A stretch of DNA of 64,000 nucleotides, from positions 9,294-73,293 of the forward strand of contig CAYTKM010000005.1 of the NCBI GenBank assembly GCA_964438425.1, given 5' to 3'. The stretch comes from an uncultured Gammaproteobacteria bacterium (GTDB taxonomy: Bacteria; Cyanobacteriota; Vampirovibrionia; LMEP-6097). The notes under the pieces are model-generated. The model made no database searches, had not been told where the DNA came from, and was given only the letters and a program-made list of their open reading frames with translations. This document shows positions 3,475 through 60,398 of this stretch, one piece after another. Numbering within the stretch: the stretch's first letter is position 1; each line of letters starts with the position of its first letter. Position numbers and translations under genes: made by a program.

Positions 3475-4137
3475 TTATTTTGATTGAGTTTTATTCATAA
3501 ATTCAATTAAATTTTTTAAGTCTTCGTTTCTTAGCTTAGTATAGTTTTTTTGATTTAACTTTAAAGCTAAAAATCTTTTTAATTGTTCATCGAATGTAAG
3601 GCATTCACCTGGATCTGATCTTAAATCTTCATAACTATTGTATTGCTTTTTTAAATCCTTAGTTAATTTTAATCTATCAATTTCACTTAAAGTTTTGAAG
3701 TTAATAAATTTTTTATCAGACATAATCTCAGTTTTGTATTCGTTTATTATAAAGCCCTCAAAACAGCAAGGCATACTAATTATAAAATGAGGATTTAAAT
3801 TTTTATTATTCAAGCTGTTTAAATCACGCAATGGTGTTTTAAAAAATTCTTCATTGTTTTCAGGATTTATTTTCCATTGTTTTGCTAGAGCTTTATAAGC
3901 TTCTTCATTTAAATCCTTATCTTCATCTAACATTAGATAAACCTTATTTTTGTGACAGCAGCGTAATGCTTTCATTAAAATTGAACTAGGATTTCCTCCT
4001 GTAGCTGGCTCTATAGTTAAGTTAAGCTTAGTTTTATTTTTTAGAAATACTTCTTTTAAATGCTTAATTAATATATCTTCTGACTTACCTTCAGGGAATA
4101 TAGAAGCTGTAATTTTTTTAGTACGTTTTTTACCCAT
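3475..4137 (-). CDS. RloB/DUF4276-like TOPRIM-fold protein (AbiLii-like)
   Basis: N-terminal IFPEGKSE (TOPRIM glutamate), LMLDEDKD (DxD) and a later CCFEGFII motif. The start lies 3 nt after the stop of the upstream ATPase. Confidence 0.55.
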   Translation of the reverse strand: MGKKRTKKITASIFPEGKSEDILIKHLKEVFLKNKTKLNLTIEPATGGNPSSILMKALRCCHKNKVYLMLDEDKDLNEEAYKALAKQWKINPENNEEFFKTPLRDLNSLNNKNLNPHFIISMPCCFEGFIINEYKTEIMSDKKFINFKTLSEIDRLKLTKDLKKQYNSYEDLRSDPGECLTFDEQLKRFLALKLNQKNYTKLRNEDLKNLIEFMNKTQSK

Positions 4138-4140
4138 GGA

Positions 4141-5373
4141 CTAAACTTTATAATTATAATCAACTTCTGGCACGGCACCATAAGCACCAGCAATATACTT
4201 ATTATAAAAATTTTCATCTGCTCTAACATCTTCAACATCGTCAAGTCTGTAAACTTCTGTTTCAAAGACTTGATTGTTTTTTTCACAAAGAAATATTTGA
4301 GATTTCTGCCTGTCATTCATTAATTTATGTTGATGAGTTGAAAAAATTAGCTGAGCATTTGCTTCATTTATAGATTTATTTTCAAATAAATTTACTAAAG
4401 CTTTAGCAACAAGTGGATGCATGGCTGTAGATAACTCATCATAAATGGCAACTCCACCATTTTTAAATAATTTATATATTTCTAAAAATAAATCAATAGC
4501 TTTTTGAGTTCCATGAGATTCTTCTATTAGCGGTAAATCAAACTCTTTCTTCTCATGTTTATGTTTACAAAAGATGACATCTTTAATAATGGATTCAGTT
4601 GGATTATCTATAGAAGTAGATTTAATTTGTTTCATAAAGATATCATTAATACATATATCTATACTTTGCAAAAAACTAACTAGTTGATTTTTTAAAATAG
4701 CATCGTTTTTCACGGTTTTAGAATTATTAATCCATTTAATAAGGTTAAAGTCAAATTTAAATTTATTGGGATATTCTAGATTGTCTTTATATAAGTCGTA
4801 GTATTTTAAAGTAATATATTCTAAATTATTAATTGCAGATAAAAAACTTACTCTAGATCTTTTAATTAACCTTTCTTTTTCAATAGTGCTTATTTCAAAA
4901 GTTAAGTCCAGAGGCTTTTTACTGTTTTTTGCTCTATTTACAACAAAAATCTTTTTGTATTTGGAATTTGGCTTATTTTCCTTTTCGGAAAGTTTTTCAT
5001 AAAGGATTTTTTCATTATCAAGATGAATAATATGCTTATAGAAATTTCCTTGGTAAAAAAATTCATTTTCGAATTTAGTGGTTTTATTTTTATGTAACTT
5101 GTGCTTAATTTCCCTAAATTCACTTTCGTCAGGCACATCATCGTAAGAATTTCTAACTAAATTGAACATAAATTCAAACGCTTTTAATATAGTAGATTTA
5201 CCTGAAGCATTCGCTCCTACAAAACAATTTACTAAATTTATATTTAGTTTGTTTTTAATTTGAAAGCATGAGTTATCTACATTAGCTTTATCATGAACAG
5301 TAAAAGTTAATTCCTGTTCAGTACCCACACTTAAAAAATTTTCAACTTTGAAATTTATAATCATAATAGCCAA
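4141..5373 (-). CDS. ABC/AAA_21-type ATPase (AbiLi / RloA / OLD-N-terminal-like)
   Basis: Walker A GANASGKST, Walker B VAIYDE, and H-loop LIFSTHQH near the C-terminus. It is translationally coupled to the RloB-like gene. Confidence 0.65.
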   Translation of the reverse strand: MAIMIINFKVENFLSVGTEQELTFTVHDKANVDNSCFQIKNKLNINLVNCFVGANASGKSTILKAFEFMFNLVRNSYDDVPDESEFREIKHKLHKNKTTKFENEFFYQGNFYKHIIHLDNEKILYEKLSEKENKPNSKYKKIFVVNRAKNSKKPLDLTFEISTIEKERLIKRSRVSFLSAINNLEYITLKYYDLYKDNLEYPNKFKFDFNLIKWINNSKTVKNDAILKNQLVSFLQSIDICINDIFMKQIKSTSIDNPTESIIKDVIFCKHKHEKKEFDLPLIEESHGTQKAIDLFLEIYKLFKNGGVAIYDELSTAMHPLVAKALVNLFENKSINEANAQLIFSTHQHKLMNDRQKSQIFLCEKNNQVFETEVYRLDDVEDVRADENFYNKYIAGAYGAVPEVDYNYKV

Positions 5374-16160: not shown

Positions 16161-18968
16161 TTACTTACCCTTAAAAAATTCAATACCCGACTCTATTTTT
16201 TTTAGATCTGGCTTAAATATATCTAACATAATACGATTGTTAGTAAACTTAACAATTTTTTGTTTAATCTCTTCTTGCTGCTTACCTAAATAAATCAAAA
16301 AAGCATTTTTAATTTCCTGAAATTCAGGTTTAGTATAATGGCTCTTATCAATATTTTTTAATTTTTCGATCATTTTTTCTGAGTACATTTTCTTATTTAA
16401 AGATTCTAAAGATAAAGCTGGTGGAAGTTCAGTATTTAAATATATAGAAGTAATTTTTGCTAACTCTTTAATAGTTTTGGAATTTAAGTCTATGTCATTT
16501 GTAATAAAAAGTTTAAAATCTGCTATAACTTTAGATAGTTTATTCAAATTTTCTTGATTAGGTTTATTAGCCTGTTCACTATGAAAATCTGCCTGAGTCG
16601 TATTATCAAATTCTAAATTAATATTACTTTTGATAACTTGGCCATTACCAGTAACGGGCAAGTTCTTTCTAACACTAATTTCAAAAGGCTTTTGCTTATC
16701 ACTTAGAATACTCATAAGCTTGTAGCTCACATTATTAAACGTAGTACGACTTAATTGGAACAATTTACTATAAAATTCATTATCTCTATCTTGCATTGGT
16801 AATTTAGAAGCTAGTTGCATTTTGTATTTATCAGGAATTCTAGTTGAACTAAAGAAATCGTAAAGTTTTTGATCAAGTTGAACTCCTTGACTTTGAAAGG
16901 AATCACCAATAGCATCAATAATCTGTTCAGCGTATTTTTTCTGAAGTTTATAAACAGAACGAATTTGCTCTAAATCCTTAGTCTTGAAGTTTAGTTTATC
17001 CTCAAAACACTTTAAAAAATTTCTAGCACTACCTTTAAGACAAAGTGTAAATAAATTTTCACGAAAATGATCTAAATCTGATTGCGGCACAATATTAGGT
17101 AGTTCTTTAGATAAAGGATGCTCGTTTTGAAGTAAATGCTTTATAAAATACAGTTTTTTATCGTAGCTGTTTAAACTTAAGTAATTTTTCTGTAAGTCTT
17201 GCACATCTTCATTTGTAAGTTTTGCGGCTTGACTAGCTACGAAATCTAATTCATTTAATGCTGAATCTCCAAAATGGTTCATACTTTTAGTAGCTTCTGT
17301 AGCAGTAGCAGCCACAAAGCTTTTATGCCAGTATAGCCTAGCTTGGTCAGCCTTAGTAAACTTTTCATCCAAGAATAGACTTCTAACAAACTGTGATTTT
17401 TTATCTAACAATTTATGGTAAGTATCTTCAGATAAAACTTTTTCAAGTGGTAATCTCAAAACTTTAATACCAAATTCAGCTTTAAGTAATTTAAAATATT
17501 CTGCTTCATCTTTTAACAAATACCCAAAATCATCGAAACCATTAAGCTTAGTTGAGTTTAATAGTTTATCAATATCATTATTCATAATAGCTTTAGCTAA
17601 ATAAGATGGCTCAGGTAAAGCAGTTATTATATTTGACTTTAAAGTTTGATCTTTATTATCACCGCACTTATGCTGCTCTATATAAAATAATGCGCGCGCT
17701 CTAAAAACTTCCTCTAAGGAATTAGTCAGTGCTTCTATAAATAAGTCAGGTTGAGCTATTAAATTTTTATTAGCTTTATTATCATAATAAGCTAAGGTTT
17801 TTAAAAATATATTCAATGATTCTGGTTCAGTAGATAATTTTTGTAATGTTTGTTTTAGCATCGGCTTCTTTTTGCCATTTTCACTAAAATCTATAGCTGC
17901 ACTTAACAGTAAATGCTGTCTATCACTAAAACCTTTTAAGTATTCTAAGCCATTATTAAGATCATCAAACTCAGGTTTAATAGAATTTTCTTGGTATAAC
18001 TCAAGATCACAAGATAACAATTTTCTAGCTTCCTTGCGACGCTGATTATATTCCTGAAAATTATTAAATTCACTATCGTCTTGAGGCATTCTTGATGGTT
18101 GCAAGCAAGTAGGGAATAAAGTACCTGTTATTGAATCTCTAGTATTTAAAAATTGTTGTAGATTAGCTTTGTTCTTTACACCTGCACTATAGTCAATAAA
18201 ATACACTGAGTTATGGGTTAGCACCATTGATAAATCATAATGTGACAATTGTAAATCAGGCACTGATGGTTTAGCATCAGTAGGATGGTTGTGAGCTATC
18301 AGCACATCAGCTGTAGGGTTAGATTTAGGATAATTATTATAGATAGGATTTAAAATTGCATCTGAAATATTTTCACATAACATTTTATATTGCTCCTGAT
18401 CATTTAAAACTCTATAAGTACTTAAATCAGTTAAATCTTTAATTTGATAATTCACATTATCTCGGTCACCCGATAAGACTTTAAGGTTTTCTGAATTTAG
18501 TGGTTGCTTAATATTATTTGATTTATTATCAGCGCTATTACCTGTATAGATAGTCATACTAGATGTATCATTACTCTTATCAGGCTTATAAGCAAGCAAA
18601 TATTCTTTAATTTCTGGTAATTCTAAATGCTTGCCCATTAGAGCTATTATAGGAAACTCTCCTTCAGTGAATTTTGTAACCATAATTTCAGTTAATTCTT
18701 TTAGATGCTGAAAGTTTTTAGGATTAAAAGTTTTCTGAGCCAATAGCTGTCCTTGAAAAGTTTTATTAGCCTGATTACCGTGGAAATCTCCCTGAATCGT
18801 ATTATTAATATCAGAGTCTGCATCTTTATTAGGAGGTATTAAGCTTGGACTATCACTTTTTACAGTAGGCATGGCTTGCTTTATAGCTTTAACATCAACA
18901 GTATCAGTGATTAAATTTTTAGGCTGCGTTGAGATGTTTAAAATTAGCTGATGTGCTGATAGTTTCAT
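16161..18968 (-). CDS. large lineage-specific protein with JAMM/RadC-like HNHP motif and N/C-terminal 15-aa repeat
   Basis: 935-aa ORF. LIAHNHPTDAKPSVPD resembles the JAB HxH..S..D motif. NNTIQGDFHGNQANK near the N-terminus is repeated as DNTTQADFHSEQANK near the C-terminus. Confidence 0.55.
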   Translation of the reverse strand: MKLSAHQLILNISTQPKNLITDTVDVKAIKQAMPTVKSDSPSLIPPNKDADSDINNTIQGDFHGNQANKTFQGQLLAQKTFNPKNFQHLKELTEIMVTKFTEGEFPIIALMGKHLELPEIKEYLLAYKPDKSNDTSSMTIYTGNSADNKSNNIKQPLNSENLKVLSGDRDNVNYQIKDLTDLSTYRVLNDQEQYKMLCENISDAILNPIYNNYPKSNPTADVLIAHNHPTDAKPSVPDLQLSHYDLSMVLTHNSVYFIDYSAGVKNKANLQQFLNTRDSITGTLFPTCLQPSRMPQDDSEFNNFQEYNQRRKEARKLLSCDLELYQENSIKPEFDDLNNGLEYLKGFSDRQHLLLSAAIDFSENGKKKPMLKQTLQKLSTEPESLNIFLKTLAYYDNKANKNLIAQPDLFIEALTNSLEEVFRARALFYIEQHKCGDNKDQTLKSNIITALPEPSYLAKAIMNNDIDKLLNSTKLNGFDDFGYLLKDEAEYFKLLKAEFGIKVLRLPLEKVLSEDTYHKLLDKKSQFVRSLFLDEKFTKADQARLYWHKSFVAATATEATKSMNHFGDSALNELDFVASQAAKLTNEDVQDLQKNYLSLNSYDKKLYFIKHLLQNEHPLSKELPNIVPQSDLDHFRENLFTLCLKGSARNFLKCFEDKLNFKTKDLEQIRSVYKLQKKYAEQIIDAIGDSFQSQGVQLDQKLYDFFSSTRIPDKYKMQLASKLPMQDRDNEFYSKLFQLSRTTFNNVSYKLMSILSDKQKPFEISVRKNLPVTGNGQVIKSNINLEFDNTTQADFHSEQANKPNQENLNKLSKVIADFKLFITNDIDLNSKTIKELAKITSIYLNTELPPALSLESLNKKMYSEKMIEKLKNIDKSHYTKPEFQEIKNAFLIYLGKQQEEIKQKIVKFTNNRIMLDIFKPDLKKIESGIEFFKGK

Positions 18969-19235: not shown

Positions 19236-20444
19236 TTAAAATATATCTAAATTAATAAATTCAAGCTGATCAAAGCTTATAAATTCAACACAAATACCAT
19301 GATAATCTAAAGTTGTATTAAGGTTTTCATTTATTATAAAGCCTTTTTGGGTTTTAGGGTAAGCTGAAATAAATTTTTCAAAGCTTTTAGGGATATTTGC
19401 AACTTTCAAGTTAGATTTAACTTCAAATATATATGGTAGTTGATTTTTAATATATACAAAATCAATTTCATCACCTTTTTTAGTACGCCAAAATCTCAAC
19501 TCAGCATTAGGTGGCAGTTGTGTATATAAAAAATTATGAACATATGTTTCATGTATTAAACCTTTATCATCACGCAATTCTATAGATTTGAAATCACTTA
19601 AAATCATATTTCTAATTCCAGAATCATATAAGTAATATTTTTTAGATTTTTTTAGTTCATTACTTAAATTCTTAGCATAACTATGAAGAGAATAAAGTAC
19701 AAAAGTCTCTTCTAAAACATAAAGGTAATTTTCTAATTCTTTAGCACTTATTTTTAATTCATTAGCCAAACTTGCTATAGCAATGATTTGTCCTTGTCTT
19801 GCTGCTAATAAATATAACAATTTATTAAAGGCAGGTACATTTTGCTCGGCAATAAGTGATTTAATGTCCTTTAAAATATATGTAGCAAGTAGATTCTGCA
19901 ATTCTTTAATTTTATTAGCTTCATCTTTTATATTAATTAAAGCTGGCAGCGCGCCATATAGAAAATAATCAGCTAAACTATTATTGATTTGACTGTATTC
20001 ATTAAAGTTTAAAGGATATATTATTTCTTGATTTTTTCTTCCAGCCAAACTTTCTTTAAGGTGTTTATGAATCTCAAGTGAAGATGAACCTGAAGCGATA
20101 ATTTTAATATCTTTACTTGGATCATCATAAATAGCTTTAAAAAACTTGGAAGCATTATTAAAGTATTGAAATTCATCTATAAATATATAATCAACATTAT
20201 CAGTAATATCTTCATACAATTCAACTAAGTCTTGACTAAAGTAACGACTATCTTTAGGAATTTCTAGGTTAAAGTATTTAGCTCTCTTAGCTTTATCCTC
20301 TATAAACTGCTTTAGTTCTAATAATAAGTGAGTTTTGCCAACTTGCCTGGCTCCAATTAAAATTAGTATTTTAGAATTAGCTAAATCTTGTTGAAGATAC
20401 TCGTAAATAGTTCGTGTTATTAAATAGTTAGAGTTACTAGACAT
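19236..20444 (-). CDS. AAA+ ATPase, COG1373 family (AAA_14 + DUF4143)
   Basis: Walker A GARQVGKT, Walker B IFIDEFQ, SLAGR motif. Paralog of the 20766 gene. Confidence 0.7.
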   Translation of the reverse strand: MSSNSNYLITRTIYEYLQQDLANSKILILIGARQVGKTHLLLELKQFIEDKAKRAKYFNLEIPKDSRYFSQDLVELYEDITDNVDYIFIDEFQYFNNASKFFKAIYDDPSKDIKIIASGSSSLEIHKHLKESLAGRKNQEIIYPLNFNEYSQINNSLADYFLYGALPALINIKDEANKIKELQNLLATYILKDIKSLIAEQNVPAFNKLLYLLAARQGQIIAIASLANELKISAKELENYLYVLEETFVLYSLHSYAKNLSNELKKSKKYYLYDSGIRNMILSDFKSIELRDDKGLIHETYVHNFLYTQLPPNAELRFWRTKKGDEIDFVYIKNQLPYIFEVKSNLKVANIPKSFEKFISAYPKTQKGFIINENLNTTLDYHGICVEFISFDQLEFINLDIF

Positions 20445-20663
20445 TGTTTTTAGATTAGATTTTTAGTAGATTTATTTCTTTTAATTAGATTTTATTAAGT
20501 CATTATATTAACTTAACAAGCTTCGTTACCATTTTACCACTTTCAAGCAGAATAGTAACAATGGCACTATTTTATATGTTTATGCTATTTAGTAACAGTA
20601 AACAGACTAAATACAAAAGTTATACTATTTAACAAAGATTATTTCATATTAATAGTTTTTGTC

Positions 20664-20759
20664 TCGACTAATCTAAAATTAGACTTTGGATTAGTCGAGA
20701 TTTTGCTTGACAAATATTATATATTTCGACTAATCTGAAATTAGACTTTGGATTAGTCG
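20664..20759. promoter_or_regulatory. two copies of a 35-bp operator-like palindrome flanking promoter-like elements
   Basis: tCGACTAATC-N15-GATTAGTCGa occurs at 20664-20698 and 20726-20759. TTGACA and TATATA lie between, immediately upstream of the 20766 start. Confidence 0.45.
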
Positions 20760-20765
20760 GACATA

Positions 20766-21986
20766 ATGGATAATATAAAAAGAACATTAACGCAAACTAT
20801 CAAAGAAACTAGTGACAGTTTTAAAGTTTTATTATTAACAGGACCCAGGCAAGTAGGTAAAACTACACTTTTGCAGGAAGTACAAAAAAAAACTCGTTCA
20901 TATATTACTTTAGATGATTTAGATATGCGGCTAGCTGCACAAAAAGATCCTGCTAGTTTTTTAGATCGTTTAGATTTTCCAGTATTAATTGATGAAGTAC
21001 AATATGCACCAGATTTATTTCCATACATAAAAATGATCGTAGATAAAGAAAAAACGCCAGGTATGTTTTGGCTCACAGGTTCGCAGCAATTTGAAATGAT
21101 GAAGAATATCAATGAATCCTTAGCTGGTAGAGTAGCAATTTTAAATTTGCAAGGAATTTCACTTGCTGAAGAGCAAAATCGACCAAACGATAAGCCATTT
21201 TTACCCACCTTAGAATTATTAAAGTCTCGCAAAAAAGCTAAACCTTTAAGCTTAACTGCTGCGTATCATATAATCTGGCGTGGTTCATACCCTGATGTAG
21301 TGATTAGAGATGGTAAAAATTGGGAGCGTTTTTATAGTTCATATCTTTCAACTTATATTCAACGTGACGTCAGAGAATATCTAGACATTCAAGATACAGC
21401 TTCTTTTCATAAATTTATGGGTATAGCTGCTGCAAGAACTGGACAACTAGTAAATTATACTGATATCGCTCGAGATGTAGGAGTAAGTCAGCCAACTATA
21501 AAAACTTGGATAAATGTGTTACAAGCTTCAGGAATTATAACTTTACTTCAGCCTTATTATAATAATCAAACTAAGCGCTTAGTGAAAAGCCCTAAATTAT
21601 ACTTTATGGATACTGGGCTCTGTTCATATTTAACTGGCTGGTTGAATGAAGATGTTTTAGAGCGTGGTGCAATGTCTGGAGCTATACTTGAGACTTGGGT
21701 AATATCAGAAATAATTAAGTCATATTTACACCATGGACGTAAACCGCGTATCTATTTTTACAGAGATAAGGATAAACGTGAAGTTGATGTTTTAATTGAA
21801 GAGAACGGTGTATTGCACCCTATAGAAATTAAGAAAACAGCTTCGATCAGAAATATGAAATTCAAAGGTTTTGATATGCTTGACAAACTCGGAGTGAATA
21901 TCGGTCACGGAGGTGTGATGTGTTTTACTCAGTCATTAATACCGATTTCAAAAGGTATTGATGCTATACCTGTGGGGTATTTGTAA
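20766..21986 (+). CDS. AAA+ ATPase, COG1373 family (AAA_14 + DUF4143)
   Basis: Walker A GPRQVGKT, Walker B LIDEVQ, SLAGR motif. Confidence 0.7.
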   Translation: MDNIKRTLTQTIKETSDSFKVLLLTGPRQVGKTTLLQEVQKKTRSYITLDDLDMRLAAQKDPASFLDRLDFPVLIDEVQYAPDLFPYIKMIVDKEKTPGMFWLTGSQQFEMMKNINESLAGRVAILNLQGISLAEEQNRPNDKPFLPTLELLKSRKKAKPLSLTAAYHIIWRGSYPDVVIRDGKNWERFYSSYLSTYIQRDVREYLDIQDTASFHKFMGIAAARTGQLVNYTDIARDVGVSQPTIKTWINVLQASGIITLLQPYYNNQTKRLVKSPKLYFMDTGLCSYLTGWLNEDVLERGAMSGAILETWVISEIIKSYLHHGRKPRIYFYRDKDKREVDVLIEENGVLHPIEIKKTASIRNMKFKGFDMLDKLGVNIGHGGVMCFTQSLIPISKGIDAIPVGYL

Positions 21987-22238
21987 AGCGAAGTAAAATC
22001 TATTTATAAATTACATATACAATATTCGATTAGTTAAAATGCTACGCGGAGCTAATTCAAAATAAACTTTTAATAAATCTAACGTAGATCTGTATGAAAT
22101 TTAAAAAACTTTTAAAACTCTATTAGTAAGCATACTAATTTCAAAAGCTAAGTTATTAATTTTGATTAAGTGGAAGCTAGGAAAAAAATAAAATTAAGCT
22201 TAGCCTTAAGTTTTAAATAATAAACTAAAATAAATAAG

Positions 22239-22313
22239 TGGTGCTGGGGATAGGATTCGAACCCACGACCGCCTGATTACAAGTCAGATGCTCTACCAAC
22301 TGAGCTACCCCAG
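22239..22313 (-). tRNA. tRNA-Thr (anticodon TGT)
   Basis: Manual fold: GCTGGGG acceptor, D-arm GCTCAGTTGGTAGAGC, anticodon loop CTTGTAA, T-arm GGTTCGAATCC, 3' CCA. Confidence 0.85.
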
Positions 22314-22429
22314 CTCACGAATTAAAATTATAGCAAAAAGATTTTGAATAACTTTTATTTTGCTAGACTTATAGTTTTTTTTAATTTTTTAGGCAATTAG
22401 GTTTGAAGTAATGCTGTAAAATTGTCCAT

Positions 22430-22466
22430 CCGTGACCGCCTGATTACAAGTCAGATGCTCTACCAG
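22430..22466 (-). other. partial duplicate of tRNA-Thr (internal 37 nt, 1 mismatch)
   Basis: ccgtgaccgcctgattacaagtcagatgctctaccag matches tRNA positions 22265-22299. It lies 117 bp from the intact gene. Confidence 0.7.
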
Positions 22467-22573
22467 TGAATATATTTTGGCTAATAAATTAGATTATACT
22501 AAACATTTTCTTTAAAAGCATACATAAAACTATACTAAGCATTTGAAAGCAACAAGTACATAACCTAACAAGA

Positions 22574-56087: not shown

Positions 56088-59000
56088 TTATCTTAAAGTT
56101 GGAAAGCTATTAACTTCTAATTTCCAGATCTTTTCAAAATCCCAACCAGCATATGTGCTGGCATCCATTAATTCAGTAGCAGTTTTAGCAGCTAACTTAT
56201 TATCGATAAAACCAGCAAAGTCTTGATCATAGTAAACACTACTTAAACTGCTTTTAGCATTATTAAAACTTAGATTAGTCCTTCTGCGTTTAGCCTCAAG
56301 TTTGACACGCAAGTAACTATTGTTAAAGCTAGCTTTTTTGTTTTTAAAGGTTAAAGCTGCGCTGTGTCTGTTATCGCTATTAAGCGTTAAATCATTAAAA
56401 TAACTATTTTCAAAAGCAGAGTTTCTAAAGTTAATTGCTAAACCTGCCACTTTGCGTTTAGCATTAAAAACGCTGTTTTCAATAGAAATACGTTCTATAA
56501 AGCTGCCTCTAATAGTAGTCGCTAAGCCAGCAGTATTTTTTGCCTGCATGTTTATGCTATCTAGCTCAATATTACTTATAGTTGATTGACGAATACGTTT
56601 ACCAAATAAAGCAGCTTGCTTACTATTAGTGATAGTCAAATTCTCGAAAATAAGGTCTTGAACATTAGCTCCATCTAAAGCATTAAAAAAACCTTTACCT
56701 TCAATATTCAGATTACTAATTTTATGATTCCAACCAAGCAAATTACCTCTAAATACTGGCATAGCATTTAAACTGGCACCATTACAATCAATATCATTAG
56801 TTAGCGCAAAATCAAGGTAATTAGGATTATTTAGCTGCAAAAGCTCATTGCAGGTGCGTATTAGTTTTTCATCAGCAACATCAGTCACATTTACATTAAC
56901 GGTCTGGGTTAACTGCTGATTTAAACCTTGCACTTCTATATTTAACTGATGACTTTGTGCTGCTTCGTAGTTAAGTGAGCGTTTAGTAAAAATTCGATTA
57001 TTTATTATATCAAAATTATCTTGGTTATCAATTAATTTATAGCTGATGCTGGCTTCAGCTGGTGCATTAATCAACTCTAAATTCGCTACTAGATAATTTA
57101 TGCCAGCATTTTCCGGCACTGTAAAATCTTTCAACTTCAGTTCAGGGTTAGCCTGAATTTCTAAAATAAGCTCTTTAGTAAAAGTATTTGCTGAGCTGTC
57201 TAAAACTCTAAATCTTAGTTTATAGCTAGCTTGAGTTAACTTAGCTATTGTAAACAGTTCAGTACCAACTAGTTTAAAAGGAGAATTAGTAGTTAAGAGC
57301 TCTAAAGTAAAAGTATCGTCAATATCAGCATCTATAATCTTAACTTCAGCTATCAAAGTATCAGTACTAAGGTCGCTTGCAAGTTCGGTTTTATAGTCAA
57401 GTATTAGATCACTTGGAGCTGTGTTACTAATATTATCTGTAAACACCAGCTGAAACTTTTTAATATGACTCAGACTAGTACTATCCGTAGCTCTGATATT
57501 CAATTCTACCTGCTCGCCGACTACATAACCAGAAGCAGTTTGAGCAAGCCTGAGTTCATCATTTACTATAGTAAATAGACCTATAGCTTCACCATTTTTA
57601 TTTTTCTGAGTAAGGATTTTAAAAGTATGCTGATCATCAAAATCTGGATCAATAGCATTTAAACGACTAATTAAAGTACCTTTAGACGCGCCGATGAGAA
57701 CTCTAGTACTTGAAAGTAAAATATCTGAAGGCGCGCTACCAGCATTTGCAGGAATATAATCAATATTTTTTAAAAATGGATAAGCGTTAGTAATGGACCA
57801 GTATGTTTCAAAACTCCATTGATTGAAGCTAGCTTTATCTTGCATTTCAGCAGTAGTTAAACCAGTAGCCCCGGCACTTTGTTGCTCCCCTGAGCGCTCT
57901 AGATCATAGTAACAGTTAGAAACCCTAGTTAAATTGTCTCTACCAGCTACAAAAGCTCCCATAGAAGTTGTGCCCGTAACTAAACCAAGACTGTATGATC
58001 TATCAACAACTGTATTGCCATCATACATGTAACCTACTATGCCTGCACCAAATTTAGTAGCATTAACATTCGCTTCACTGTATGAGTTTTGAATGATACT
58101 ATTTTGCATCGAACCGATTAAACCGCCAACATCTTCCTCACCTGTAATATCACCAGTTGAAAATGAACTGACAATAATTGAATCATCGAAAGCATAGCCC
58201 ATAAAAGCACCTGTGAAATTAGCACCCTTAACACTTATATTTTGCAACCCTAAATCAAAAATAATACAGTTGCGCGCTGCTCCAAGCAAACCTACATCAT
58301 CTCTAGCTGACTGATCAATTTGTAAATTTAAAACTATAAATCCTTTACCATCGATGAGCATTTTATAAGATGGCTTAGCATATGTACTTGCAGGTACATA
58401 TGATGTCCCAGCACAGTTAATGTGCTGACCCAAATCAAAATCTAAACCATAAAATTCGTCAGACAATGGATAATTAATAGCAGCAATCAGTTCTTCGCAG
58501 TTATTAACCAGTAATCTTTCAGCCTGATAGATAAAACTTTCTTCAGTACTATAAAAATTGCCATCAACATCAAATGTAGTGATTTTGACTTTATATTCAC
58601 CTGCTAATTGAGGATCATAAGTTTCATAAAAACTTTTAATATCAATATTATCAAGTATTAAATCATTTTCTATACTAGAAAAGCCCTGATAAATCTCAAC
58701 CCAAGGTAAACCAGTTAGATTCTTGCGGATTTCAACCTTAAAACTAGTTAAATTCTCAGCACTAACCGTTCCCTGCAACCTAACATTTTCATTTAAGCGT
58801 CCTAAAAAAGAATTTTTATCTGATAAAACTTCAAATTCGATATTTGCTGGCACATAGTCAACCTGAGATACTTTTTCTAAATTTAATAAGCCTGAACCAA
58901 TACTGGAATTAGCTAGCTGATCAGTTTCATTTTTAATAGCTATCTCAAGCTGCTGCGGTGTGAAATTAGGTCTTAAAGACTTTAAAATAGCTGCTGCGCC

Positions 59001-60398
59001 AGCTACGTGTGGAGTTGCCATCGAAGTGCCAGAGAGACGATAATAAGAATGACCATCAACCCCATCTAAAACCTTAAGGTCGGGATCACCCTTAGCTATA
59101 TTATGACTATCATCCATAGTAGACACTATATTATTTTTATCACCACCAGGAGCAGCAATATCCACAGCACTACCAAAGTTAGAATAAGAAGCTTTTTCTT
59201 GATTAACATTTACAGCAGCCACTACTAAATTAGATTTAATATTACCTGGTAGATATAAACCAGCATTATCGTTTTCATTACCAGCAGCTACAACCGATAA
59301 AACTCCTTGAGAATATGCATATTCAAAAGCACTTTCAAGTACAAAACTATCGCCTAAACCACCCCATGAAGCATTTATGATATCTGCGCCGTTATCAGTA
59401 GCATAGACAATCGCTTCAGAAAGATCAGTATCAGAACCGACACCTTTATTGTTAAGAGCCTTAACTGCCATTAATCTGGCTTTAGGTGCCACACCTACTA
59501 TACCTAGAGCATTATCAGCACTAGCTGCAAGCGTACCTGCGATATGAGTTCCGTGTCCATGATCATCTAAAGGTCTATAATATTTTTTAGAGCCCACATT
59601 AGCAAGAGCATTAATTCCTAGACTATTTTCTAAGACTTCATTATCTTCGATTTTGCCATTAGCATTTACATCTAAATCTTGATAATCAACGCGACCATCA
59701 AAATTAAGGTCATCTACTACAGCTGGATTAACCCAAATATTTTCAATTAAATCAGGATGATTATACGAAATGCCAGAATCTATAATCGCAACCACAGCTC
59801 CTTCACCTTGATTTATCTGCCAAGCAGCTTCAGCTTTTATTTGACGTAAACCCCATAAAATATCTTCATCATTAAACGGGTAAGTCTCTAACTCAGCAGC
59901 TGGTAAGTTGTATAAGGTATCATCTGGAACGCTATTTGCACTAAGTGTTTTTACAACTGAGATCTTTTCGATTTCTTGATCGTTTTTTAAGCTTGCATAG
60001 ATGTCTTCATTAGTTTCTAGTGCACTAAAATCGATTAAATAAATTCGGTCTAAGCCATATTTATGTTTTAAACTTTTCTTTTTAAATTTTCTTTTAGCAA
60101 ACTTGCTAGAAATTTGATTATTAGAACTACGCGCTGATTTAGCTGATACTGCAACCGACTCATTTTCCTCAAATAATTTTTTAACTTTGGCTTTGCGATG
60201 TTTTTTACTTAATTTGGCAGTTTTCGCTTTAAGATAATTTTCAACATAATCTTTATCGCTATGTTTAGTCATAACAACAAATTGCGACATTTTTTTATCT
60301 TTAGTAGGACTTTTTACTCGTGCAAGTACGTTTAGCTTTGCACAAAGCATAATAATAAGCACGATATAAAAACGTTTTAACATTGATGGCCCTACCAA
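56088..60398 (-). CDS. secreted S8 (subtilisin-like) serine peptidase with GLUG-type repeats
   Basis: Signal peptide. Asp (VVAIIDSGI), His (HGTHIAGT) and Ser (GTSMATPHVAG) catalytic motifs. The long C-terminal region has G.GGLIG-type repeats. 1436 aa. Confidence 0.8.
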   Translation of the reverse strand: MVGPSMLKRFYIVLIIMLCAKLNVLARVKSPTKDKKMSQFVVMTKHSDKDYVENYLKAKTAKLSKKHRKAKVKKLFEENESVAVSAKSARSSNNQISSKFAKRKFKKKSLKHKYGLDRIYLIDFSALETNEDIYASLKNDQEIEKISVVKTLSANSVPDDTLYNLPAAELETYPFNDEDILWGLRQIKAEAAWQINQGEGAVVAIIDSGISYNHPDLIENIWVNPAVVDDLNFDGRVDYQDLDVNANGKIEDNEVLENSLGINALANVGSKKYYRPLDDHGHGTHIAGTLAASADNALGIVGVAPKARLMAVKALNNKGVGSDTDLSEAIVYATDNGADIINASWGGLGDSFVLESAFEYAYSQGVLSVVAAGNENDNAGLYLPGNIKSNLVVAAVNVNQEKASYSNFGSAVDIAAPGGDKNNIVSTMDDSHNIAKGDPDLKVLDGVDGHSYYRLSGTSMATPHVAGAAAILKSLRPNFTPQQLEIAIKNETDQLANSSIGSGLLNLEKVSQVDYVPANIEFEVLSDKNSFLGRLNENVRLQGTVSAENLTSFKVEIRKNLTGLPWVEIYQGFSSIENDLILDNIDIKSFYETYDPQLAGEYKVKITTFDVDGNFYSTEESFIYQAERLLVNNCEELIAAINYPLSDEFYGLDFDLGQHINCAGTSYVPASTYAKPSYKMLIDGKGFIVLNLQIDQSARDDVGLLGAARNCIIFDLGLQNISVKGANFTGAFMGYAFDDSIIVSSFSTGDITGEEDVGGLIGSMQNSIIQNSYSEANVNATKFGAGIVGYMYDGNTVVDRSYSLGLVTGTTSMGAFVAGRDNLTRVSNCYYDLERSGEQQSAGATGLTTAEMQDKASFNQWSFETYWSITNAYPFLKNIDYIPANAGSAPSDILLSSTRVLIGASKGTLISRLNAIDPDFDDQHTFKILTQKNKNGEAIGLFTIVNDELRLAQTASGYVVGEQVELNIRATDSTSLSHIKKFQLVFTDNISNTAPSDLILDYKTELASDLSTDTLIAEVKIIDADIDDTFTLELLTTNSPFKLVGTELFTIAKLTQASYKLRFRVLDSSANTFTKELILEIQANPELKLKDFTVPENAGINYLVANLELINAPAEASISYKLIDNQDNFDIINNRIFTKRSLNYEAAQSHQLNIEVQGLNQQLTQTVNVNVTDVADEKLIRTCNELLQLNNPNYLDFALTNDIDCNGASLNAMPVFRGNLLGWNHKISNLNIEGKGFFNALDGANVQDLIFENLTITNSKQAALFGKRIRQSTISNIELDSINMQAKNTAGLATTIRGSFIERISIENSVFNAKRKVAGLAINFRNSAFENSYFNDLTLNSDNRHSAALTFKNKKASFNNSYLRVKLEAKRRRTNLSFNNAKSSLSSVYYDQDFAGFIDNKLAAKTATELMDASTYAGWDFEKIWKLEVNSFPTLR

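Follow-up and report, generated by a model that had tools for sequence, protein, structure and literature searches.

A palindrome built into the promoter of an AAA_14/DUF4143 ATPase gene is conserved across bacterial phyla and may be its autoregulatory operator

Introduction

Proteins that join an AAA_14 ATPase to a DUF4143 domain (COG1373) form PDC-S01, which is reported to rank as the fourth most common candidate defence system in prokaryotes, of no known mechanism and with its activity unvalidated (PMC12988326). The ATPase plus PD-(D/E)XK architecture of the family has been described (PMC12988326; PMC3424549), and a PDC-S01 member tried in E. coli fell outside the four candidate systems reported to be protective against T4, T5 or T7 (10.1101/2024.09.26.614923). 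Here we analyse a stretch of 64,000 nucleotides from an uncultured bacterium (assembly GCA_964438425.1, contig CAYTKM010000005.1, positions 9,294 to 73,293; hereafter the window), in which two genes of this family, ATPase1 and ATPase2, are transcribed divergently. Our subject is a palindrome that overlies the promoter of ATPase2 and recurs, with that gene, in other phyla.

Two kinds of described system come close to this arrangement. The winged helix-turn-helix (wHTH) antitoxin AbiEi is said to bind paired inverted repeats in its own promoter. The transposase genes of IS10, IS50 and IS200, for their part, are reportedly shielded from impinging transcription by hairpins that sequester the ribosome-binding site and begin, with their 5' arm, ahead of the resident promoter's start; IS200 is said to add an upstream terminator. 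For PDC-S01 itself the searchable literature on DUF4143 / COG1373 gave no description of regulation or of a conserved promoter-palindrome. The promoter-embedded palindrome conserved across phyla thus appears undescribed, while the arrangement is of a known kind: that of an autoregulated or insulated toxic gene.

Results

A duplicated palindrome at the ATPase2 promoter

The genes and control elements of the locus are as follows.

19236-20444, minus strand: ATPase1, open reading frame (ORF) of 402 amino acids, AAA_14 + DUF4143
20662-20700, plus strand: palindrome copy 1 (op1), TCTCGACTAATCTAAA-N7-TTTGGATTAGTCGAGA
20707-20712, plus strand: -35 hexamer TTGACA of the ATPase2 promoter, read from sequence
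20725-20762, plus strand: palindrome copy 2 (op2), TTCGACTAATCTGAAA-N7-TTTGGATTAGTCGGA
20766-21986, plus strand: ATPase2, ORF of 406 amino acids, AAA_14 + DUF4143

An earlier note on this DNA had described two paralogous ATPases of about 400 amino acids, transcribed divergently from an intergenic region of about 320 bp. That description holds: both ORFs match Pfam AAA_14 and DUF4143, and the spacer between them measures 321 bp. The note had also reported, within the spacer, two copies, 62 bp apart, of a 35-bp element with a 9-bp inverted repeat around the promoter-like hexamers TTGACA and TATATA. The two copies (20665-20697 and 20727-20759) are indeed 62 bp apart from start to start and differ at one position in 33 nt; 100 shuffles gave no match to the repeat, and no further copies are found in the 64-kb window. 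The palindrome stands, with longer arms than reported: 13-16 nt across the two copies and 16 nt in op1 (20662-20677 and 20685-20700), where they are 94% complementary around a 7-nt loop. TTGACA likewise stands as the -35 element. TATATA, which begins just 5 nt after it, was rejected as its partner in favour of TTGACA-N18-TAATCT, the TAATCT lying inside the left arm of op2.

The two copies differ in position relative to this promoter. Op2 spans the -10 hexamer TAATCT (20731-20736), the leader and the ribosome-binding region, and stops 3 nt ahead of the ATPase2 ATG; transcription would begin at about 20743-20745. Op1 has no good -35 element upstream and is followed by TTTTGCTT, with the T-run UUUUGCUU. 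Its predicted RNA hairpin (-23.8 kcal/mol, z -6.3) fits a terminator-like pattern, it matches the covariance model R1 with 57.2 bits, and we read it as an auxiliary operator, a terminator-like insulator or both. No variation of the tandem palindrome copies within populations came to light, three metagenome contigs being 100% identical to the window.

Conservation of the palindrome with ATPase2-type genes

The motif upstream of 35 ATPase2-type loci (32 of them non-redundant) can be aligned without gaps, save for a 1-nt insertion in three. In the 35 loci its parts come in one order: TTGAC(A), a 17-nt spacer, TAATCT, 13 nt with a nearly invariant A, and aGATTrGnCG. The left arm of the palindrome, cGnCTAATCT, holds the -10 hexamer; the right arm complements the left and reaches to within 0-20 nt of the start codon. 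The TTG of the -35 element stands at the same position, 17 (16-18) nt before the -10, in 30 of the 32 non-redundant loci, and alignment positions G28, A32, T34, T36, A52-T54 and G56 are invariant.

Conservation extends to the pairing of the arms. Across 37 sequences 87.8% of cells are paired, a share that drops to 22-50% if the partner is shifted by 1-3 columns; covariation scores 0.299 as against 0.186 in shuffles, with none of 500 shuffles reaching the observed value, and pair 29-58 is seen as A-T, as G-C and as T-A. Inverted repeats scoring at least 9 lie upstream of 53% of family genes and of 7% of 538 control neighbouring ORFs. When the covariance model was run over 1.01 Mb of loci, it matched only upstream of family genes, plus at one remnant promoter in L032, a Legionellales metagenome-assembled genome (MAG). 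This remnant (L032, 5436-5535) is the start of an ATPase2-type cassette about 490 bp upstream of an intact gene: it keeps the -35 element, the palindrome and ATGCATATTCAGCGAACC..., that is, seven codons and then a stop, and is evidence of cassette turnover at one locus.

Nothing else accompanies the site with comparable regularity. All-against-all clustering of flanking ORFs gave no family common to more than 4 of 41 loci, by which a conserved neighbouring regulator was ruled out, and no conserved element downstream of the ATPase2-type gene, as might mark a cassette end, was found in these loci. Since the ATPase alone is always linked to the site and the hosts belong to many phyla, a host regulator is unlikely. 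As judged from these comparisons the palindrome is a feature of ATPase2 alone and not of both ATPases. It overlaps the core promoter and the probable transcription start, as expected of an autoregulated promoter-operator, and this overlap, together with its conservation alongside the ATPase2-type gene, supports the earlier suggestion that the palindromes are operator-like, regulatory elements associated with a promoter.

In more distant subfamilies, at 46-55% identity, and likewise in the ATPase1 type, a palindrome is still found at the promoter, with other arms (for example TTCGTGTATATT, CTCGTATAAAAT, TTTTATGAAAATCCGCA and CTCCAAAAT). A termite-gut spirochaete subfamily (47-49% identical) has a different and very strong palindrome, TTTTATGAAAATCCGCA-N7-TGCGGATTTTCATAAAA, the arms of which reach 18 nt; in its loci (L051, L052, L058-L060, L065, L067, L072 and L076) the palindrome lies about 40-80 nt upstream of the gene and upstream of the promoter, not over it.

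A winged helix in the ATPase2 model

No solved structure for ATPase2 was found by sequence search. An AlphaFold2 model (pLDDT 92.4) runs from an AAA+ core and lid through a winged helix to a C-terminal alpha/beta domain with D341...E354-x-K356. The wHTH, a high-confidence prediction, occupies approximately residues 211-280, with helices at 211-223, 231-238 and 242-254 (the last being the recognition helix) and a beta wing; helix-turn-helix profiles match weakly at residues 224-283. The closest folds (Foldseek E 4e-7 to 1e-4) are those of MalT, RuvB, PAB2304, Apaf-1 and ORC/Cdc6, at low TM-scores (0.2-0.4) and sequence identities of 9-18%. The residues that start the predicted recognition helix vary with the class of palindrome arm (SEPT, THNT, DVRT, APNT, DSKT and SVTT).

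Family membership and spread of the two ATPases

Both proteins score far above the Pfam gathering cut-offs (27 for AAA_14, 28.1 for DUF4143): ATPase1 with 99.1 and 113.4 bits, ATPase2 with 95.1 and 166.9 bits. In PADLOC, ATPase2 matches the PDC-S01 model PDLC04790 over residues 2-406 (E 1.3e-116) and ATPase1 the model PDLC04789 over residues 9-378 (E 1.9e-87); by these matches they are ordinary members of the candidate system PDC-S01 (COG1373), assigned to different subfamilies of it. The Walker A, Walker B and PD-(D/E)XK motifs are intact in both (in ATPase1 GARQVGKT, FIDEFQ and EIDFV...FEVK). Among 64 family sequences, the two window proteins included, G26, R28, Q29, V30, G31, D76 and E77 are invariant, and K32 and the PD-(D/E)XK-motif residues D341, E354 and K356 are at least 90% conserved.

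ATPase1 and ATPase2 are just 25% identical (BLASTP 2e-29); we therefore take them to be distant paralogues rather than the products of recent duplication. A divergent AAA_14/DUF4143 partner, sought with both ATPases by tblastn, was absent from all 80 ATPase2-family loci, which disposes of a conserved divergent pair and of the idea, put forward earlier, that the two ATPases form one module. In Caenarcaniphilales paralogues of the family do cluster, though in arrangements other than a divergent pair. The genes also differ in composition: GC content is 26.1% for ATPase1 and 15.4% at its third codon positions, both two standard deviations under the window mean, and the GC z-score is -2.0 for ATPase1 as against +0.4 for ATPase2. 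The two ATPases are independently acquired single-gene accessory members and not one element or a two-gene system.

Their relatives are distributed differently. ATPase1 has relatives of 50-64% identity, the named ones being Caenarcaniphilales or Cyanobacteriota MAGs, and a metagenome scan with it yielded only four loci; it belongs to a subfamily typical of Caenarcaniphilales. ATPase2 has homologues of 67-84% identity in at least seven phylum-level groups; the genomes that carry them are labelled Oligoflexales, Vampirovibrio, Alphaproteobacteria, Micavibrio, Rickettsiales, Legionellales, Nitrosomonas, Nitrospira and Spartobacteria. The host's own PriA, by comparison, has its best named relatives in Caenarcaniphilales and Melainabacteria at 40-50% identity, and nothing above 50%, by which the host is placed as a deep-branching relative of the Cyanobacteria, non-photosynthetic and with no close kin sequenced. 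Given 67-84% identity across phyla for ATPase2 against at most 50% for PriA, spread of the ATPase2 clade by horizontal transfer is clear. More distant members of the ATPase2 family are carried by 248 plasmids, and a scan of viral contigs gave four distant matches (37-50% identical).

Two observations bear on the route of this spread. The hosts of the closest ATPase2 homologues (L006-L043, L071 and L084) are weighted heavily to predatory or host-associated bacteria (Vampirovibrio, Micavibrio, Bdellovibrionales, Oligoflexales, Rickettsiales and Legionellales), which offers a possible ecological route of transfer. Separately, two loci labelled Oligoflexales and Vampirovibrionales (L019, 5929-10450; L043, 5929-10490) have 4.6 kb in common at about 80% DNA identity; the common block starts exactly at the -35 element of the cassette and extends 3 kb downstream past tRNA-Asn, and is either a larger transferred block or the result of a mis-assigned MAG.

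The region upstream of ATPase1

Between ATPase1 and op1, which lies 217 nt from the ATPase1 start codon, one element was noted.

20525-20559, minus strand: weak candidate control region of ATPase1, an imperfect palindrome, GTTACTATT / AATGGTAAC, around GGTAAAAT

The element includes TAAAAT at 20531-20536 and has an inverted-repeat score of just 6.5; its assignment to ATPase1 is tentative and made with low confidence. In relatives of ATPase1 a strong palindrome comes first, GGTAAAAT or GGTATAAT next, and the ATG 6-8 nt further on. This design, with palindrome arms of 10-17 nt, is seen in L099 (5900-6000 and 7170-7266), L101, L105, L108 and L109, and in the ATPase1-type genes of Caenarcaniphilales it implies mRNAs that are probably leaderless. 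The window ATPase1 differs from these relatives in that its best motif lies about 85 nt from the ATG. An 11-mer near its start that resembles a half-site of the ATPase2 palindrome, CTAATCTAAAA, was considered as a sign of cross-regulation and discarded, its matches being at chance level (11 versus 8.1 expected).

Alternative readings of the palindrome and of the locus

On balance, and with no great margin of confidence, we favour the reading that the palindrome is the promoter-operator of a self-contained ATPase2 cassette, autorepressed through the winged helix of ATPase2. Several points weigh against it. Most dimer operators are shorter and resemble a hairpin less than this perfect palindrome of about 35 bp with its compensated loop-proximal pairs (in L021 and L033, for instance, AAA/TTT has changed to GGG/CCC), which leaves room for a role in nucleic-acid structure. 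The correlation of helix residues with arm class is confounded by shared ancestry, and a wHTH common to the family could serve the recognition of target DNA instead of regulation; the transcription start, moreover, is placed from the promoter consensus alone. Finally, PDC-S01 is itself an unvalidated candidate, its tested E. coli representative standing outside the four systems reported to protect (10.1101/2024.09.26.614923).

A possible, though distinctly less probable, alternative is that the palindrome acts at the level of RNA, as fold-back protection of the kind known from IS10, IS50 and IS200: in RNA reading through from outside, a hairpin of 14-17 bp would bury the ribosome-binding region, while the gene's own transcripts, starting in the loop and so without the left arm, would be translated, and op1 would terminate incoming transcription. 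The geometry is suited to this, with the -10 in the left arm and the nearly invariant A (column 45), about 9 nt past the -10, in the loop. For read-through RNAs the predicted folding energies range from -15 to -27 kcal/mol (op2 of the window: -17.5 kcal/mol), and eight of the nine tested have z-scores from -2 to -7; RNA from 20745 is unstructured (-1.5). Op1 fits the terminator pattern, loop-proximal pairs carry compensated changes, and insulation would help a horizontally transferred gene, whatever the context in which it comes to lie. At pairs 31-56 and 36-51 all departures from Watson-Crick pairing are of the sense-strand U-G type (34 U-G versus 1 A-C); this excess falls inside the -10, however, and is also explained by promoter constraint on the left arm and purine preference in the right. 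Outside the -10 the counts are 18 versus 9 (p = 0.12), which is not significant, and sense-specific wobble was therefore set aside as proof of an RNA hairpin. Loop length does not vary among 34 of 37 sequences, which one would sooner expect of a protein site, and the palindrome of the spirochaete group and of the ATPase1 type is placed entirely upstream of the -10, where it cannot sequester a start codon. Nor does the locus carry a transposase or terminal repeats: transposase domains are absent from the 36 window ORFs scanned with Pfam (1.2-60.4 kb, including every ORF of at least 60 amino acids from 14.6-25.5 kb except short ones inside larger genes), and no conserved ends or neighbours were found. 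Rfam, at both gathering and E-value thresholds, returned only the tRNAs. Fold-back and operator models are not mutually exclusive. Far less credible is the view that the palindrome is a generic dispersed repeat, like repetitive extragenic palindromic (REP) sequences or miniature inverted-repeat transposable elements (MITEs), or an operator shared by both ATPases. It draws on the presence of two copies in a single intergenic region between divergent genes; yet the window holds no other copies and the covariance model matches only ahead of ATPase2-family genes, so that the many unrelated intergenic sites of such a repeat are missing from the window and from the 1.01 Mb of loci alike. A shared operator, for its part, is at odds with the absence of a divergent partner in 80 of 80 related loci, with the 217 nt that separate op1 from the ATPase1 start codon, and with the unrelated palindromes of ATPase1 relatives and the chance-level occurrence of the half-site 11-mer.

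The remaining alternative concerns the locus as a whole, and in particular its tRNA flank.

22239-22314, minus strand: tRNA-Thr (anticodon TGT), 73 bits
22434-22465, minus strand: orphan tRNA-Thr copy, 32/32 identical to tRNA positions 17-48 (D-loop to variable loop)

The earlier note had placed tRNA-Thr 250 bp downstream of the second ATPase, and so it is: its 3' end faces the ATPase2 stop codon from 252 nt away. Of the 37-nt duplicate of the tRNA that the note had seen, 32 nt are an exact copy of positions 17-48, and about 37 nt is reached only if two mismatches are allowed; the fragment receives no tRNA score and lies 119 nt 5' of tRNA-Thr, on the side away from the ATPases. The note had taken it as a possible scar left by integration of the 19.2-22.5 kb block, and we consider it improbable that this block is what is left of an element once integrated at tRNA-Thr and that the fragment marks its attachment site. 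The ATPases do adjoin the 3' end of the tRNA, which is the classical position of an island, and ATPase1 is atypical in composition; a syntenic relative (L086, below) lacks ATPases there and has a direct repeat that includes the tRNA end, and in two other ATPase2-type loci (L012 and L036) about 70 nt separate their end from that of a tRNA, on its 3' side. Against this, the fragment corresponds to an internal part of the tRNA rather than its 3' end and, being 5' of the gene, brackets 119 bp and not the ATPases. A second copy of the tRNA-Thr 3' end, such as would form a direct repeat at a far boundary, is absent from the 64 kb, and integrase or recombinase domains are absent from the 36 scanned ORFs. 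The two ATPases, moreover, differ in origin and composition, and the only available relative is distant, so that lost synteny carries little weight.

That relative, L086, is a Caenarcaniphilales MAG whose PriA is 50% identical to that of the window and whose left flank covers just 4 kb. It keeps the order tRNA-Thr, p144 homologue, methyltransferase, FliN, tRNA-Val, PriA, response regulator and RlmN; 3' of tRNA-Thr, in place of the ATPases, stand a 393-amino-acid gene of unknown function and DUF1521 genes. The accessory nature of the ATPases, as proposed earlier, finds support in this comparison. The gap between tRNA-Thr and p144 measures 511 bp in the window and 76 bp in L086, and the tRNA fragment makes up part of the extra ~435 bp; it is most readily viewed as a minor local scar that has nothing to do with the ATPase block. 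L086 also carries a 126-nt direct repeat (3746-3871 and 3985-4109, 239-bp spacing) that includes the last 19 nt of tRNA-Thr and looks like an attachment-site scar; in each unit the anticodon arm of tRNA-Thr (TTGACTTGTAATCAG) is also present in inverted form. Because of this repeat the tRNA-Thr flank does look like a recombinationally active site, or hot-spot, in this lineage, which is not evidence of one integrated ATPase element.

A tRNA lies within 6 kb in 10 of 39 ATPase2-type loci, about the number expected by chance, and a general enrichment of tRNAs near these genes was accordingly dismissed. Three ATPase2-type genes (those of the window, L012 and L036) end 70-250 nt from a tRNA 3' end, which is mildly suggestive of insertion at tRNA flanks. 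In L087 (4510-5883) a different AAA_14/DUF4143 gene, of 457 amino acids, lies directly upstream of tRNA-Val and PriA, and this points to repeated insertion of the family near tRNA genes in the lineage. The window locus is thus a variable tRNA flank with two independent accessory genes, and not a two-gene system or a delimited integrated element.

Other genes of the window

Besides those named above, the window encodes PriA, SecA, PolA, RlmN, SpoIID and a FliN-like protein. A second defence-type locus, an AbiL-like two-gene abortive-infection pair (3475-5373, minus strand), lies 14 kb from the ATPases: a 410-amino-acid AAA_21 ATPase matches PADLOC AbiLi (2.1e-69), its 220-amino-acid partner matches AbiLii weakly (0.002), and the GC content of both genes is two standard deviations under the window mean. 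Adjoining ATPase1 is a gene for a 935-amino-acid protein with no Pfam or PADLOC match (16161-18968, minus strand), at a place where L086 has DUF1521 proteins. A 1436-amino-acid subtilase with a cadherin domain and an M26-N-like domain is encoded at 56088-60398 (minus strand).

Discussion

The arrangement that we favour can be set out as follows. The -10 element of a near-consensus sigma-70 promoter, TTGACA-N17/18-TAATCT, is part of the left arm of a palindrome some 35 bp long; the right arm would extend over the transcription start, a leader of roughly 20 nt and the ribosome-binding region. ATPase2 would bind this palindrome by its own wHTH, probably as a dimer or higher oligomer, and in doing so occlude the -10 and the start site: the result would be negative autoregulation, by which a potentially toxic nuclease-ATPase is kept low. 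Op1 lies 62 bp upstream, a distance of about six helical turns that puts both copies on one face of the DNA, and may allow cooperative binding and/or block transcription from upstream. A cassette that carries its own promoter and operator would work wherever it lands, which fits its spread across phyla. TT_P0211 of Thermus thermophilus, a distant member of the family, is up 6.6-fold when a plasmid is present (PMC4406477), and such induction fits a repressed, inducible gene.

A bolder extension of this scheme, which we regard as rather improbable, would make the PDC-S01 protein sensor, effector and regulator in one chain. A specific palindrome of some 35 bp, or the hairpin or cruciform that it forms, would be recognised by the winged helix, and the copy in the promoter of the gene would keep the gene silent; competing DNA structures of an invading element, or ATP-driven oligomerisation, would free the operator, derepress the gene and arm the nuclease. 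If true, the unit of promoter, operator and gene would be a minimal self-installing immune module able to work in any phylum.

Irrespective of that extension, a large clade in which the promoter is fixed, does not depend on phylum and has its -10 within a palindrome offers a first testable handle on the PDC-S01 family. Other clades carry their own palindromes at the promoter, and a defined DNA site, probably recognised by the winged helix, lends itself to a simple reporter system. A portable promoter-operator would also account for how one gene can work after transfer between very different bacteria.

ATPase2 can be compared with several known systems. With PADLOC PDC-S01 both window proteins share the end-to-end model match and the ATPase plus PD-(D/E)XK architecture, while the promoter-palindrome linked to ATPase2 has no counterpart in what the searchable literature describes for the family. 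Like the AAA+ and STAND NTPases ORC/Cdc6, RuvB, MalT, Apaf-1 and archaeal PAB2304, ATPase2 is modelled with a winged helix after the lid, and in ORC/Cdc6 and MalT the helix-turn-helix binds DNA sequence-specifically; ATPase2 differs from these proteins by its additional C-terminal PD-(D/E)XK-like domain and by lacking the STAND sensor repeats. The hairpins of IS10, IS50 and IS200 are matched in geometry – the -10 in the 5' arm, the probable start in the loop, the 3' arm over the ribosome-binding region – and in the presence of an upstream terminator-like hairpin; the ATPase2 locus departs from them in having no transposase, terminal inverted repeats or target duplications, and its RNA-specific covariation is not significant. 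With negatively autoregulated toxin-antitoxin and abortive-infection genes such as AbiEi it has in common a palindrome over the core promoter, a duplicate site about six helical turns off, a predicted winged-helix domain encoded at the locus and a potentially toxic product. Here, however, a putative DNA-binding domain, ATPase and nuclease would be united in one polypeptide, and there is no separate antitoxin or regulator gene.

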